A program made the translations under genes and the position numbers. The notes under the pieces were generated by a model that ran no database searches, was not told the DNA's origin, and was given only the letters and a program-made list of their open reading frames with translations. DNA of 64,000 nucleotides from an uncultured bacterium (GTDB lineage: Bacteria > Patescibacteriota > Patescibacteriia > UBA1558 > GWA2-36-10): contig CAINYB010000007.1 of NCBI GenBank assembly GCA_903855135.1, positions 8,402-72,401 of the forward strand, read 5' to 3'. Shown one piece after another: positions 35,266 to 55,757 of the stretch. How positions within the stretch are numbered: position 1 is the first letter of the stretch; the number at the start of each line of letters is the position of its first letter.

Positions 35266-35370
35266 CACCCCTCCCGTCCTCCCCTTACGAAGGGGGAGAT
35301 TTTCAACCTGCGAGGTCAGCTTAACTCTTTGCCTAACATTAGCTAAAAACTAAATAAGCTACCTACATTA

Positions 35371-35393
35371 ACCTCGCAGGTGACCTGCGAGGT
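35371..35393. promoter_or_regulatory. Perfect 23-bp palindrome (candidate operator) abutting a -35 element
   Basis: acctcgcaggt-g-acctgcgaggt; a third half-site is at 35306-35316; TTGACA at 35397-35402. Confidence 0.45.
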
Positions 35394-35459
35394 GATTTGA
35401 CAAAAAGCTTAATATATGATATTTTGATATAAATTCGCACAAGCCAAGGAGGACACATC

Positions 35460-35594
35460 ATGGCACGCAAAGTCGAGATCACACCCGAACTCCGCCGCCT
35501 GATTGAACTGGCTGCTAAAGAAGCTGCTAGCAACAAGGTTGTGCAGGAACTACGCAAACGCAACTCCACACCAAAATCGACCTCAACAAATTAG
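35460..35594 (+). CDS. Small ORF (44 aa), high GC, strong SD; possible small DNA-binding (RHH-like N-terminus) protein
   Basis: AAGGAGG 7 nt upstream; MARKVEITPELRRLIELAAKEAASNKVVQELRKRNSTPKSTSTN; terminator hairpin gctcccc...ggggagc plus T-run at 35621-35660. Confidence 0.4.
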   Translation: MARKVEITPELRRLIELAAKEAASNKVVQELRKRNSTPKSTSTN

Positions 35595-35679
35595 TTCTGA
35601 CGTGATTTGAAACTAACTCCACACTTCCAACCGCTCCCCACCTCAAAACCGGGGAGCTTTTCTTTTACCTTGAGCGAAG

Positions 35680-35708
35680 TCGAAAGGTTTTGACTATTTT
35701 TTCGCTTT
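35680..35708 (+). promoter_or_regulatory. sigma70-type promoter (TTGACT-17-TATACT) driving a ~180-nt leader/sRNA upstream of thrS
   Basis: TTGACT 35680-35685; TATACT 35703-35708. Confidence 0.45.
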
Positions 35709-35714
35709 TAGCTA

Positions 35715-35892
35715 TACTACATGAGCTGTATAAATGATTGGAATAGCTACCAACTATTCTACCATCGGTATCCCGAGCCCCGAGCGTAGTCGAGGGGTCG
35801 AGGGACTAAATTCAACAGCCAATAAAATAAATTAAGTATAATATTGGGTGGAACCATCCTACGAAACCTAGGGTCCCAAGGCATAGTCTGTC
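35715..35892 (+). ncRNA. Candidate thrS leader RNA (T-box-like?) or sRNA ending in an intrinsic terminator
   Basis: GGGTGGAACC (35836-35845) resembles the T-box core AGGGUGGNACC; terminator cccaag/cttggg plus TTTTT at 35865-35892; a CUACCAA loop with a Thr ACC codon at about 35750; thrS ATG lies 120 nt downstream. Confidence 0.3.
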
Positions 35893-36013
35893 TTGGGTTT
35901 TTGAATGCCAAAAATTTAAAGACAAAGCGTAGCTTTGTCTAAATTAAAATAAATTCATCCCGCGATTAGCGGGGTTTAACTAAAATTTGTAACAAACAAT
36001 TAAATTAAAAAAT

Positions 36014-49301: not shown

Positions 49302-49847
49302 CTAAATTTTCTTTAGTTTTTTCTCCAAAATCTTATAGCTGGGTATGGTTTTAGCAACTTGCACCCAAAAAGCTTTGCTATGATTCATCTCTTGCAAATG
49401 ACAAAGCTCATGCACAATCACCATATCAGCTAAATCTTGAGGTAACAAACACAAACGATAGTTAAAATTTAAATTCTTTTTACTAGAGCACGATCCCCAA
49501 CGACTACTCTGATTTCTGACTGCTATTCTATTATATTGAAAATTATAAAATTGATTAAAATATTTTAAACGTTCTTCTACTAAAACTTTAGTTTGTTTTT
49601 TATATTTAGTGATTTCTAAAGCTGTATGTTTAAGAGAAAATAAACTATTTCTAGTTTTTATTTTTACCAAGCTATCCTCCAGCCAAGCTTGTTTAGTTTG
49701 TAAAAAATTTTTAATCAAAAACAAAGGATAGACTCTACCCACTGATAAAACAATCCGTCCGTCAGCCTTGACTGACAAACGTAAAGATCGCATGCCTTTT
49801 TTTCTTTTGATTTCTATCTGATGATTAAAAATGTTTACAAAACTCAT
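49302..49847 (-). CDS. YgjP-like metal-dependent hydrolase (DUF45/SprT-like, HExxH)
   Basis: HELCHLQEMNHS near the C-terminus; size and architecture of the YgjP family. Confidence 0.55.
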   Translation of the reverse strand: MSFVNIFNHQIEIKRKKGMRSLRLSVKADGRIVLSVGRVYPLFLIKNFLQTKQAWLEDSLVKIKTRNSLFSLKHTALEITKYKKQTKVLVEERLKYFNQFYNFQYNRIAVRNQSSRWGSCSSKKNLNFNYRLCLLPQDLADMVIVHELCHLQEMNHSKAFWVQVAKTIPSYKILEKKLKKI

Positions 49848-49869
49848 ATTTTATGCTATACAAAAGTCA

Positions 49870-50085
49870 ACGAGCTCATTTCAGTCCACCTCCCTCAGCC
49901 GCAGTGGCGTCGGTCCTTCTCAGGGACAAGCGCAACGACACCACGTTGATTTTGCTGGTCGTCCCGATGACGCCTGTTGTCGGGACGACTCCTTTGCCCC
50001 TTCTGGCTGGCGGCACTTCGTGTCGCTGACTTGGCTAGCCGCTGGACTCTCCTCGAGAGTCCAGCGGCACTTTATTTTATATAGA
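49870..50085 (+). ncRNA. Candidate ~210-nt GC-rich structured RNA with a perfect intrinsic terminator
   Basis: GC far above the flanks; hairpins gtcgtcccga...tcgggacgac (49961-49992) and a 14-bp stem gccgctggactctc/gagagtccagcggc (50041-50071) followed by ACTTTATTTTAT; candidate promoter TTTACA-17-TATACA at 49834-49862 with TGn. Confidence 0.3.
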
Positions 50086-50457
50086 TTTTTCCAAAGATTG
50101 TTTTGCGCTTTCAGTATAAGCCCGAGCTAAACCACCTACTCCTAATTTTACTCCCCCAAAATATCTGACAACTACTATTAAACAATTATTTACTTCTTTC
50201 TTTTTCAATAAAAATAAAATCGCCGAGCCAGCTGAACCAGCTGGTTCTTTATCTTCGGTATATTTTTCTTTCAAAATCCCCGCTTCTTCTAAACGATAAG
50301 CCCAAACAAAATGCCGAGCATCGCTATACTCGGCTTTTATCTGACTAATAATTGCTTTAAGCTCTGTTTCTGTAGAAACAAAAAAACTAAAAGCTAAAAA
50401 TTTTGATTTTTTAACTTCGAGTTTGCTTGGCAAGAAACTTACTTTATTGTTCATCAA
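50077..50457 (-). CDS. IMPACT/YigZ family N-terminal domain protein
   Basis: RHFVWAYR...EPAGSAG block characteristic of UPF0029. Confidence 0.55.
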   Translation of the reverse strand: MMNNKVSFLPSKLEVKKSKFLAFSFFVSTETELKAIISQIKAEYSDARHFVWAYRLEEAGILKEKYTEDKEPAGSAGSAILFLLKKKEVNNCLIVVVRYFGGVKLGVGGLARAYTESAKQSLEKSI

Positions 50458-51218: not shown

Positions 51219-51383
51219 ATAAACATACAACAATACGCCACCCCGCTTCGCGGGGTGGCGTATTGAATTTATAAATAGAGAATTTTAGACTCCGCCGAAG
51301 GCGGAACGCACCTTCTCCCCCAGATCCCCGCGTAGACGGGGAATGGGGAGATCGAGAGGGGGTATTTTAGTTTATTGTTCAAA

Positions 51384-51465
51384 GGGCTAGCTGCCCATTT
51401 GCATCCAATTGTTCAATCAAGCAAGGAGGGATGCTGATAAACGTTCAGATGCGGATAGCTAGCCC
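51384..51465 (+). other. 82-nt nested stem-loop element upstream of mfd (candidate leader structure/sRNA)
   Basis: Long-range 9-bp stem gggctagct/agctagccc enclosing an inner hairpin gcatcc...ggatgc; preceded by nested GC hairpins at 51296-51375. Confidence 0.3.
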
Positions 51466-51488
51466 ACTAAACAACAATTTTGTAACTC

Positions 51489-54400
51489 GTGACAAAAGCT
51501 AGAATTTATGCTAAGATCAGACAAGTTTTCCTAAATTTTAGGTGCCAAAAAATTATCATAAGCCAATTAGTTTGTCAAATGTGGAAAACTTTTAAACTAG
51601 CTAGCGCCCTGACGCCAGTCCAACAAGTTATCACTTTATTAAACAGCCCCCTATTAGATCAAAATAAGGTGTTTTTGTGGTGTCTAGAAAATAATCAGCA
51701 AGTCAAAACCTATACTGATTTACTCAAAAATTTACAAAAACTTTACCCAAAAAACAAACAAATTATAGCTTGGCCACAACAAGCTGAAGCTAAACTGGAT
51801 ATTTTGACTGCTTTATTTAATAATCAGCCAGCTATTATTTTGACTACCGTAGATAATCTAAATACCCCAGTGCTAAATTGGGATTATCTTAAAAATAATC
51901 AATTAAATCTAAAATCTGGCCAAAACATCGACTTAAATCAGCTTGCTTTAGACTTAAATGCTTTGGGCTTAAGTCGTGAAGCGCAAGCTTGGGAAGAAAA
52001 TACTTTTAGTATCCGTGGTAGTTTAGTAGATATTTACCAAAATCATCAGCTCTATCGCTTCAATATCTGGGATAATAAACTAGAAGATTTACAAGCGATT
52101 AATCCTTGGCAAATTGATGACATAAAAAAAATAGAAAATTTTTCCATCTTTCCTTTGAGCTTACCCTATAAATATAATCTCGCCGAGCATTTACCAAATT
52201 TTTGTGGCTTGATTTTTGAACAAAATTTGAGCACAACTTTTAGTGAGTTTGCTAATCCACAAATTATTTTTGACTCACTTAGTAAAAAAGCTGACGAGAC
52301 TTTATATTTTACTAATATAAAAAATCAACTTTTAAGTACCCAAGAAAAAAATGATTTACTCTTAAACAAAACTGATTGGCAAATCATTATTTTTAGTAAA
52401 AACTTAGAGTTAAGCAAACATTTTTTTAGTGATCTATCCGGCATTCGCCGGAGTGAACAAATTAATTATGATTTAATAGATTGGCAACAAGGTCAGATTT
52501 TACCAAGTAGTTTTAGCTGGCCAGCTAAAAAAATCTTAATTTTAAATGAAAATTTATTTTTCCTCCAGGAAAGTATCACTAAACAAGCTAATGTTCAAGA
52601 ACAGTTTGCTCTAAATTTTGATCTTGGAGATCTAATAGTTCATCGTGATCATGGTGTCGGTGTTTTGAAAAAAATAGAAACTCTAAATATCGATGGACAA
52701 AATAAAGAATACTTAGTTTTGGCTTATGCCGAAAATGATACTTTGTTTGTGCCGCTAGAGCTAGCTGACAAAGTAGAAAAATATTTAGGCCCGAGCTCGC
52801 CTAAAATCCATCGCTTGTCTATCGGCAATACTTGGCCACAGACTTTGAAAAAAATCAAAGAAGACACGTTAGTTTTGGCTAACCAATTATTAACTGTCGA
52901 GGCAACTAGAAAATTACACACTAGCCCAAAAATCATCGCCTCTACTTTGACAGAACAAGTGTCCCAAGATTTTCCGTATAATTTAACTCGTTCACAAAAT
53001 GTGGCTTTACTAGATATTTGGCAAGATTTTAAATCCGGCAGCCCGAGTGATCGTTTGATTTGTGGTGATGTCGGCTTTGGTAAAACTGAAGTGGCTTTGC
53101 GTGCTGCCACCGCTGCTATCGAAAATGGCTGGCAAGTAGCGATCCTTTGCCCGACGACTATACTTGCTCAACAACATTATGATAATTTTATTAATCGCCT
53201 AGAAAAATACGGCGTCAAAATCGCTTTACTTTCTCGCTGGCAAACACCGGCTGAAATCAAAGATAATATTACTAAAATCAAAAATGGCGAGATAGACATC
53301 GTGATCGCTACACACCGTTTATTATCTAATGATATTCATCTACCAAAATTACGATTATTAATTATCGATGAAGAACAAAACTTTGGCGTCAAAGATAAAG
53401 AAAAAATCAAAAAACATCAAAGTAATATCAATCTTTTGACACTTTCTGCTACTCCCATACCACGTACTTTAAATATGGCCTTATCGATGATCAAAGATAT
53501 TTCCTTGATCAGTGATCCGATAGATAATCGACATGATATCATCACTCAAATAGCCATGACTGATGATGAAATTATTAAATCTGCCATCTCTCAAGAGCTA
53601 ACTAGATCTGGCCAAGTTTATTTTTTGCATAACAAAGTGGCGACAATTAATTTTGCTCTAGAAAAGATCAAAAAACTTTTTCCTCAAAGCAAAGTGGCTT
53701 TAGCCCACGGTCAACTCGATGATAAGACTTTAGCTGACACCATGCATGCTTTTGATACTGGACAAATAGATATTTTAATTTGCTCCACTATTATTGCCAA
53801 CGGCTTAGATATCGCTAACGCTAATACTTTAATAGTGACTGAAGCAGATAAATTTGGCCTTAGTCAGCTACATCAGTTGCGTGGCCGTATTGGTCGTTCA
53901 GAAAAACAAGCTTATGCTTATTTTTTATACTCTGTACCAAAATTAAAAACTCTAGCTTCTAGACGCTTAGGACATTTGAAACTCGCCTCCGCTTTGGGTG
54001 ATGGCTTTAAAATAGCAAATTATGATTTAGAATTGCGTGGTGTCGGACAGATTTTAGGCAAAGCCCAATCTGGTAAAGTCAAAAGTATAGGACTCGGTCT
54101 TTATCAGCAATTAATCGCCGAAACTATTGCCGAACTCAAAGGACAAATTTTGAAACCTTGGCGTGATGTAGAAATAAAATTAAATTTAGACTTAAATCTG
54201 CCAAAAAACTTTTTTAATTCTATTGCCGAAAAATTAAGTTTTTACCAAGACTTAACGAGAATAAAAGATTTAGAAATAATTTCCCAAAAAATAAAAGAAA
54301 CAGAAACTTTAGCTTTAAAAAATATTTTACATTTACAAGCCTTTAGAATCTTGTGCCAAAAAACTGACATCACAAGCATTCAAGAATATAAAAATAGAGA

Positions 54401-55374: not shown

Positions 55375-55757
55375 GGGGATGTTTTATATTTGACAATAAA
55401 TCAAATAATAGGCAGCAAGTTGAGCTGACTAACTCAAAAAATGGTCAAAAAGAATAAGTGCAAAAAACTTATTTGCGAAAGCCAAAGAACTTTTCCAAGT
55501 TCCTCAACTTTCACCAGTTTTAGCCTAAACTGCTAAAACCGTTCGCTATTTATTTGCTCAAAGGTAAATAAACGGACGTCATTCATTTGAGCTGTAGCAA
55601 AGATGCGCTAAGTGCTTTGCCAAATTAAATCTTAGCTTTAAGTCAAAGTGTTTTGTAATTTTTATAGCTTTGACTTGAACTTTAAAAAATTACTAAACTT
55701 GTAGAAGTTTGTTAAGCGATTTGTTAGACAGGGGTGTGATTCCCCTCATCTCCACCA
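55375..55757 (+). ncRNA. ssrA: tmRNA (transfer-messenger RNA)
   Basis: Begins right after the smpB stop with GGGGAUGUUUUAUAUUUGAC (compare the E. coli 5' end GGGGCUGAUUCUGGAUUCGAC); 3' end GGGGUGUGAUUCCCC T-arm, then CAUCUCC pairing with the 5' GGGGAUG, then ACCA; internal tag frame ending ...SPVLA-UAA at 55526-55528. Confidence 0.8.

Follow-up and report, generated by a model that had tools for sequence, protein, structure and literature searches.

The small RNAs (sRNAs) of the RsaE/RoxS family (RF01820) have their own promoter and intrinsic terminator and carry C-rich motifs in unpaired regions. In RsaE these motifs pair with G-rich and Shine-Dalgarno sites, and the targets include folate metabolism (PMC6158497). 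Here we describe a gene that appears to be organised in a similar way. It lies in a window of 64,000 nucleotides (nt), the whole stretch of DNA that was analysed, from contig CAINYB010000007.1 of an uncultured patescibacterium, and it forms a GC-rich island in the spacer between two minus-strand genes, one for a YgjP-like metallopeptidase and the other for a UPF0029/YigZ-like protein. The island is very probably a real gene for a structured sRNA of about 210 nt, with its own promoter and terminator and without any described family. A sequence-only reading of the window had proposed an independently transcribed, unclassified non-coding RNA on the plus strand, and this proposal is supported by the conservation of promoter and terminator, by covarying helices, by a ratio of 22 G.U to 2 A.C pairs and by the lack of any Rfam match.

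Patescibacteria, or Candidate Phyla Radiation (CPR) bacteria, have tiny genomes and few regulators, and most of their lineages are without cultures. A full-text literature search returned no report of sRNAs in this group.

Promoter, terminator and parts of the predicted RNA

The mean GC content of the window is 0.35, and the most GC-rich 120-nt stretch in the 64 kb (0.63) falls at 49841-50117. The spacer itself (49848-50076) has a GC content of 0.56, the highest among the intergenic regions of the window, so that the island first noticed from the sequence alone is confirmed as such. It is bordered on one side by the YgjP-like gene (49302-49847, minus strand; PF01863, E = 4e-41) and on the other by the UPF0029/Impact_N (YigZ-like) gene (50077-50457, minus strand; PF01205, E = 2e-34). 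Homologues of the YgjP-like protein carry the names Patescibacteria, Parcubacteria or Nomurabacteria; for at least one of them the label of the source is that of a groundwater metagenome.

On the plus strand the island begins with a predicted promoter, TTTACA-17-TGcTATACA at 49834-49862, exactly as had been claimed, overlapping the start of the YgjP-like gene. Its -35 hexamer (TTTACA, 49834-49839) overlaps codons 3-4 of that gene, its extended -10 element occupies 49854-49862 (TG at 49854-55, TATACA at 49857-62), and the ygjP start codon (49847-45, minus strand) falls between the two hexamers. The spacing of 17 nt, within the 16-18 nt expected, and the TG one base before the -10 hexamer are those of sigma-70-type extended -10 promoters. 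A consensus scanner missed this site because its rule demands a T at the last position of the -10 hexamer. A similar promoter style is found elsewhere in the organism, upstream of mfd (GTGACA-17-TGcTAAGAT) and of a tRNA. Transcription from the island promoter would start near 49869, about 7 nt past the -10 element, and would end near 50080 in the U-tract of the terminator, giving a plus-strand transcript of about 210 nt (49869-50080).

The predicted intrinsic terminator (50038-50080, plus strand) consists of a hairpin at 50038-50068, in which 10 of the 14 base pairs of the stem are G-C and the loop has 3 nt, and of ACTTTATTTTAT at 50069-80 (tail ACUUUAUUUUAU); the GC-rich stem-loop stands directly before the U-run ACTTTATTTT on the transcribed strand, and the tail reaches the stop codon of the minus-strand UPF0029 gene (50077-79). 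Stem and loop had been described correctly from the sequence, with coordinates (50041-50071) that are 3 nt too high. An internal hairpin with 10 contiguous pairs, previously placed at 49961-49992, is present as well and its actual limits are 49957-49990.

Between promoter and terminator the RNA would consist of a free C-rich 5' tail and of hairpins, four with that of the terminator, connected by conserved single-stranded linkers. The unpaired 5' tail (49869-49903) holds the C-rich box GUCCACCUCCCUCAGCC at 49884-49900, whose mean unpaired probability in the window is 0.72. It is followed by helix H1 (49904-49944), in which 49904-12 pairs with 49936-44 and which encloses a variable insert with a small hairpin (49913-27), and by linker B (GUUGAUUUUGCU, 49945-49956). 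Hairpin C (49957-49990) has 15 pairs, three of them G.U, and the loop GCCU, the 10 contiguous Watson-Crick pairs being those at 49958-67/49980-89. Linker D (CCUUUGCCCCUUCUGGCU, 49991-50008) is a second C-rich stretch; it leads to hairpin E (GGCGGCAC-UUC-GUGUCGCU, 50009-50027) and this to linker F (GACUUGGCUA, also given as GACUUGGCUAG, 50028-50037). All these parts are on the plus strand. The predicted plus-strand fold has an energy of -96.6 kcal/mol (z = -5.9) and none of 200 shuffled sequences was as stable; the minus-strand fold has z = -5.5, and folding energy alone therefore does not choose the strand.

Homologous elements, covariation and strand

Every relative whose YgjP is 74-86% identical to that of the window has a GC-rich homologous element in the same UPF0029-ygjP spacer. 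Ten distinct variants, 110-270 nt long, were recovered from these loci (designated by L numbers). Seven are long forms: the window type, with identical copies in L001-L006, the L007 type, L010, L011, L013, L019 and L120. The other three, L121 (about 110 nt), L126 (about 140 nt) and L017a (about 146 nt), are short forms. Linkers B, D and F and hairpins C and E are missing from them; besides promoter and terminator they retain a single hairpin and a 5' tail in which the C-rich box occurs twice (for example CACCCGCCC...CCACCCGCC). The more distant L014 and L020 (YgjP identity 62-65%) have neither spacer nor element; there the UPF0029 and ygjP genes share 11 nt of overlap.

An nhmmer search covering the window together with all loci (0.86 Mb) detected a single copy at each locus and no paralogues or repeat family. 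A pattern scan of GTDB genomes (CACCAC..GATTTTGCT) gave 94 stretches; the 80 that were listed look like chance matches, coming from unrelated taxa or metagenome-assembled genomes. The window's own sequence is not among these 80 of 94, for which reason its species may be absent from the GTDB species representatives. A scan of JGI metagenomes (GYCGCTGACTTRGCTAGCCSC) returned four identical copies of the L007 type, one chance match and nothing more. Judged from these searches, the element is narrowly distributed and lineage-restricted.

The promoter is kept in all variants: the -35 hexamer is TTTACA or TTGATA in 10/10, always exactly 17 nt from the -10 element, which is TGy followed by TATACA, TATATA, TATAAA or TATGAA (TGyTATAMA, TGtTATGAA or similar). 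The true start of ygjP is displaced by 55-70 nt, away from the promoter, in the L007 and L017 lineages, where all that is left of the old one is ATGAGTTTTGTAAACC with a stop behind it (L007) or an ATT instead of ATG (L017). The promoter hexamers are kept there all the same, and their conservation is therefore not a by-product of the ygjP coding sequence. The 5' end of ygjP is rearranged in the L007-type loci (for example L123, 1995-2080), where about 100 nt lie between the arms of a 14-nt inverted repeat, ACCACGTTAGATAA / TTATCTAACGTGGT; the YgjP N-terminus is 18 aa longer and the remnant of the old start lies under the sRNA promoter.

A GC-rich hairpin followed by a plus-strand U-run ends every variant, and the terminator stems covary. 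At the RNA 3' ends of L011 (about 2712-2800) and L019 (about 552-640) an extension of about 90 nt replaces the simple terminator. The hairpin loop of this extension carries a 13-mer, GGAUUAGAUACCC, identical to 16S rRNA 785-797 (the '790 loop' of helix 24) and with the same closing pairs; the match is borderline, since about 3% of shuffled sequences reach a 13-mer, and may be due to chance. Mimicry of rRNA by the motifs GCUGGCGGCA, CACCUCC and GUUGAU was also considered for the window RNA and rejected, its longest exact match to E. coli 16S/23S rRNA being 10 nt, typical of shuffles. Another observation concerns the L017/L018 spacer (1409-2001, strand opposite to ygjP), which is about 590 nt long and contains, besides the short-form RNA, a further RNA-like unit (about 330 nt) that has a TTGACA promoter and a terminator of its own. 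This unit starts with the linker-B-like CUUUUGCUGG, contains the linker-F-like CAGGCUAGC and has no Rfam match.

The exposed parts of the RNA recur among the variants. A CACCCRCC-like box is present in all of them, in two copies in each of the three short forms; the long forms have a single box (CACCCACC or CACCCGCC; CCACCUCCCUC in the window) plus the C-rich linker D. The unpaired probability of the box is 0.55-0.99 in 9 of the 10 variants. Linker B contains G(A/G)UUUUGC in 7/7 long forms; UUUGCCCCUUC of linker D is conserved in the window, L120, L010 and L011, with similar sequence in L019 and L121; and GUCGCUGACUUGGCUAGCCGC of linker F is the same in the window and in L013, which is diverged elsewhere. 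When folded singly, the variants agree on an unpaired 5' tail, H1 around a variable insert, C, E and the terminator helix T.

A module-wise alignment of the seven long forms was built by hand and fitted to the helices. From it RNAalifold predicts exactly four helices (-63.3 kcal/mol), and from an unedited MAFFT alignment it recovers C, E and T with 8 compensatory pairs. The hand-made alignment contains 46 pairs over 268 cells, 98.1% of which are canonical, and compensatory double changes occur in 29 of the 46 pairs. Shuffling of columns gave a mean of 12 such pairs and never 29 (0/1000), and sliding the 3' partners by 1-3 columns gave 2-6, so that within this alignment of seven sequences the compensatory substitutions exceed the controls, as expected of a structured non-coding RNA. 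In H1, compensatory double changes affect 6/9 pairs, as in GUGGUGC/GCACCAC against ACGGCGC/GCGCCGU. Hairpin C has compensatory changes in L120, L010 and L019 and is substituted by a shorter hairpin in L007 and L013, and in hairpin E, which retains one G.U pair in the plus-strand reading, 7/8 pairs have changed on both sides. The check for conservation and covariation in relatives, which the sequence-only reading had suggested, thus came out in favour of the RNA: ten variants and, in the seven long forms, helices that covary beyond controls. Sequence turnover in the element is fast while the helices are kept.

Moreover, covariation indicates the strand. The helices contain 22 G.U against 2 A.C pairs when read on the plus strand, and the minus-strand reading is only 89.9% canonical; the selected structure is therefore on the plus strand.

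Rfam 15 was scanned at gathering thresholds and at E<=0.05 over the whole window, at E<=10 over 551 nt around the island and at E<=0.1 in eight related loci; none of these scans found a match in the island or its homologues. The best weak overlap was CcsR1 (RF02791) at 49878-49951, with 10.9 bits against a gathering threshold of 65.3 (E = 9.6). The cmscan check that had been suggested thus leaves the island in no described family, and the earlier failure to recognise signal recognition particle (SRP) RNA, RNase P RNA or tmRNA in it agrees with the covariance models: in view of this result it is none of these and not 6S RNA (RF00013 and relatives), which was tried as a candidate and rejected at gathering in the window, at E<=10 over the 551 nt and at E<=0.1 in the eight loci. 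The tmRNA of the window is located elsewhere, at 55375-55757 (111.8 bits).

Proposed action and competing explanations

The island gene is oriented opposite to the surrounding operon of nucleotide metabolism, whose co-directional minus-strand genes encode LiaF-TM, UPF0029, YgjP, dCMP deaminase, a kinase, thymidylate synthase, DHFR, dUTPase and thymidine kinase. We propose, with a probability of roughly 0.45, that the RNA is a lineage-restricted base-pairing sRNA that acts through its C-rich segments in the manner of RsaE/RoxS and would necessarily be antisense to the operon transcript. Base pairing is rated the most likely action because a free C-rich segment on a terminator-ended sRNA is the principle of RsaE/RoxS (PMC6158497). 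The C-rich box, present in all ten variants and predicted to be unpaired in nine of them, is shared with RsaE/RoxS in this working sense only. Through such exposed segments the RNA would pair with G-rich stretches of mRNAs, in the way of the C-rich sRNAs of Firmicutes. If the operon is read through the spacer, its transcript would be fully complementary to the island RNA, and for this reason the liaF-TM / UPF0029 / ygjP / dCMP-deaminase / thyA operon is the first candidate target. Both the pairing with targets and its regulatory outcome we infer.

Several observations weigh against this proposal. Duplex scans of 67 start regions in the window (64 kb) and of 27 start regions of L126 (20 kb) returned nothing beyond the antisense ygjP region and a background tail. 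A 5-mer Shine-Dalgarno sequence was found for 6 of the 67 open reading frames (ORFs) of at least 70 aa, and a 4-mer for 11; since only 6/67 genes have the 5-mer, pairing at Shine-Dalgarno sites cannot serve as a general mechanism. Conservation of the C-rich box is not strict: its copy in the window is CCACCUCCC and not CACCCRCC. The variant RNAs are 41-78% identical, against 72-86% for the flanking genes, and thus evolve faster; whole RNA modules have been gained and lost among them, which fits weak constraint. The structural alignment, hand-made and fitted to the helices, comprises only seven sequences, and we infer transcription of the island from the geometry of promoter and terminator.

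A search with the complements of linkers B, D and F gave no convincing target in trans; the motif complementary to linker B is about 2.5-fold enriched at <=3 mismatches; it is AT-rich, and the enrichment was not treated as evidence. Pairing of linker F with a GCUAGC-containing hairpin upstream of mfd was tried and rejected, as the two do not covary (L010 changes F and not the hairpin). As for translation in the window, most starts are preceded by A/T-rich sequence, often with a TATAAT-like element just upstream, which suggests leaderless or Shine-Dalgarno-independent initiation of its genes.

The rival that survives best is an action in cis only, in which a strong convergent promoter and full complementarity would insulate or down-regulate ygjP and the downstream genes of dTMP synthesis, with no targets in trans. 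The means could be transcriptional interference, promoter occlusion at the ygjP start or cleavage of the duplex by RNase III. We consider this explanation unlikely, at odds of about three to one against; it is nevertheless a serious one, because the flanking genes overlap in relatives where the element is absent, because no promoter-like site was detected on the minus strand within the spacer, and hence no separate ygjP promoter there, and because the ygjP start codon falls between the -35 and -10 boxes. Moreover, the gene is always at one position and always antisense, it has no paralogues in the window or the related loci, and the region upstream of ygjP is the only strong duplex partner that was found. 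Yet interference alone would need neither the plus-strand helices nor the conserved linkers, which selection maintains, the C-rich box is both conserved and accessible, and the RNA has been kept in the L007 and L017 types, where the ygjP start is displaced from the promoter. A role as cis-antisense RNA or in interference may also coexist with pairing in trans.

It is improbable that the RNA acts instead by binding protein, as a 6S-like RNA or a sponge in which units of a hairpin plus an AUUUGC-type linker (B, D, F) would be the protein sites. The three linkers are indeed similar (GAUUUUGCU, CAUUUGCCCC, GACUUGGCU), each follows a hairpin and is conserved in the long forms, and a stable, GC-rich RNA with a strong promoter would suit such a function. 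Against it, Rfam gives no match to 6S or any other protein-binding RNA at E<=10, and L121, L126 and L017a keep promoter, C-rich tail and terminator without B, D and F. The conserved fold, a free 5' tail with four separate hairpins, is not the closed rod with a central bubble of 6S RNA, and the suggestion of a 6S-like RNA made from the sequence is not supported by this comparison.

There is also a slim chance that the island has no function at the RNA level and is a small protein gene or the neutral remnant of a GC-rich insertion. A 99-aa ORF (49831-50130) spans it, a 76-aa gene has been called in the spacer of one relative, and the fast turnover with gain and loss of modules would be expected of a remnant. 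The coding alternative meets the fact that the 99-, 58- and 46-aa ORFs of the island have no Pfam match, that the 76-aa product has no homologue among 5.8 billion proteins, and that ORFs change frame, strand and extent between variants, whose lengths differ by non-multiples of three; this supports the earlier view that the ORF called across the island is an artefact. The neutral alternative is opposed by the compensatory nature of the substitutions in the stems, and blastn found no similarity of the element to phage or plasmid records.

Least probable is an element of the minus strand, which would be either the UPF0029/YigZ-like gene's 3' untranslated region or, for ygjP, a structured 5' leader or an intercistronic element. 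In favour of this, the minus-strand fold is nearly as good, the spacer is probably transcribed as part of the operon and, upstream of ygjP, the sequence complementary to the C-rich box is G-rich and resembles a Shine-Dalgarno tract. Against it, that tract is 25-45 nt from the AUG, too far for a Shine-Dalgarno site, the 22 G.U pairs would turn into A.C mismatches, the U-run follows the terminator hairpin on the plus strand only, and conservation of the plus-strand promoter extends to variants in which its overlap with coding sequence has been lost. The 3' untranslated region of the minus-strand YigZ-like gene, which the sequence-only reading had kept as its alternative, is not supported, in view of pair bias and U-tract orientation.

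Neighbouring RNA candidates and known systems

Close to the island, the minus strand carries a second candidate non-coding RNA (51372-51477), with the zf_Tbcl_2 gene on one side and the mfd promoter on the other. It would form one long hairpin of about 105 nt, whose sequence in the window shares 88-93% identity with that in L010 or L007, an identity above that of the flanking genes. It also adjoins mfd in L014, L020, L126, L017 and L120, and has thus been kept in distant relatives that are devoid of the island RNA (L014, L020). Its 38 consensus pairs include 11 compensatory ones, with 251 Watson-Crick, 46 G.U and 2 A.C on the minus strand. The apical loop is UCCCUCCU, in which the anti-Shine-Dalgarno-like CCCUCCUUG is invariant in 8 variants, and in several relatives the hairpin is followed by a U-run. 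No Rfam family matches this RNA, the best hits being junk (E>1).

Other features of this region and of the window were noticed. Between the zf_Tbcl_2 stop and the hairpin RNA (51219-51360) there are three GC-rich hairpins, ACGCCACCCCGCTTCGCGGGGTGGCGT, CTCCGCCGAAGGCGGAAC and CTTCTCCCCC...GGGGAGA...GGGGGTATTTT, absent from L007 and L010, which have a single terminator there. With a GTG start at 51489 the longest mfd ORF has 1029 aa, against 992-999 aa in relatives, whose start corresponds to a site about 30 codons farther downstream. The true mfd start is probably near MWKTFK, because the extra stretch (51489-51580) contains the conserved mfd promoter. Finally, in a 748-nt intergenic region between two plus-strand genes (35266-36013) the GC content rises to 0.59 in a core of 80 nt at about 35436, and Rfam has no match to the region.

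One may speculate that the island RNA and the 51372-51477 hairpin RNA together form an anti-Shine-Dalgarno-like sRNA system, in a lineage mostly without Shine-Dalgarno sequences, which would control the few G-rich or Shine-Dalgarno-led mRNAs or switch the thymidylate-synthesis operon through the antisense unit. We regard this as a long shot; if true, CPR bacteria would have a level of regulation that has so far not been described in them. The island RNA was previously unclassified, and its gene by itself overturns nothing known. As a well-delimited sRNA gene with ten natural variants, from a minimal form of 110 nt to an extended one of 270 nt, it provides a case for the growth of an sRNA by addition of modules and a concrete case for metatranscriptome mapping, and its placement against the operon of dTMP synthesis gives a testable regulatory hypothesis.

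The island RNA can be compared with four known systems. It shares with 6S RNA a similar size (about 200 nt) and a promoter of the abundance type, and differs from it in having 5' and 3' ends that do not pair with each other, no central bubble and no match to the model. Like cis-encoded antisense RNAs and 'excludon' units, it lies against co-directional genes, overlaps the ygjP start and would be complementary to any read-through transcript; excludons are long antisense transcripts, whereas the island RNA is short, highly structured and bounded by a terminator, with helices under selection and an antisense effect that is putative. CcsR1-4 (RF02791), the CCUCCUCCC-motif sRNAs of Rhodobacter, also have a C-rich, anti-Shine-Dalgarno-like motif, which in the window reads CCACCUCCCUC. 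The CcsR motif is found in the hairpin loops of tandem repeats that are processed from the 3' end of an mRNA, in contrast to the motif of the island RNA, which lies in a free 5' tail.

The motifs of RsaE/RoxS are CCCC or UCCC, against CACCCRCC here. The string 'UCCC' was not found in PMC6158497. The island RNA has no sequence or covariance-model similarity (E<=10) to RsaE/RoxS; it is twice as long, has four hairpins, belongs to another phylum and is embedded antisense in an operon. Since the covariance-model test failed, it is to be regarded as an RNA that may work like RsaE/RoxS and not as a member of that family. The resemblance extends to two further points: RsaE carries two motifs and the short forms carry two C-rich boxes, and the targets of RsaE include folate metabolism (PMC6158497) while the island RNA sits in an operon with thyA and DHFR.

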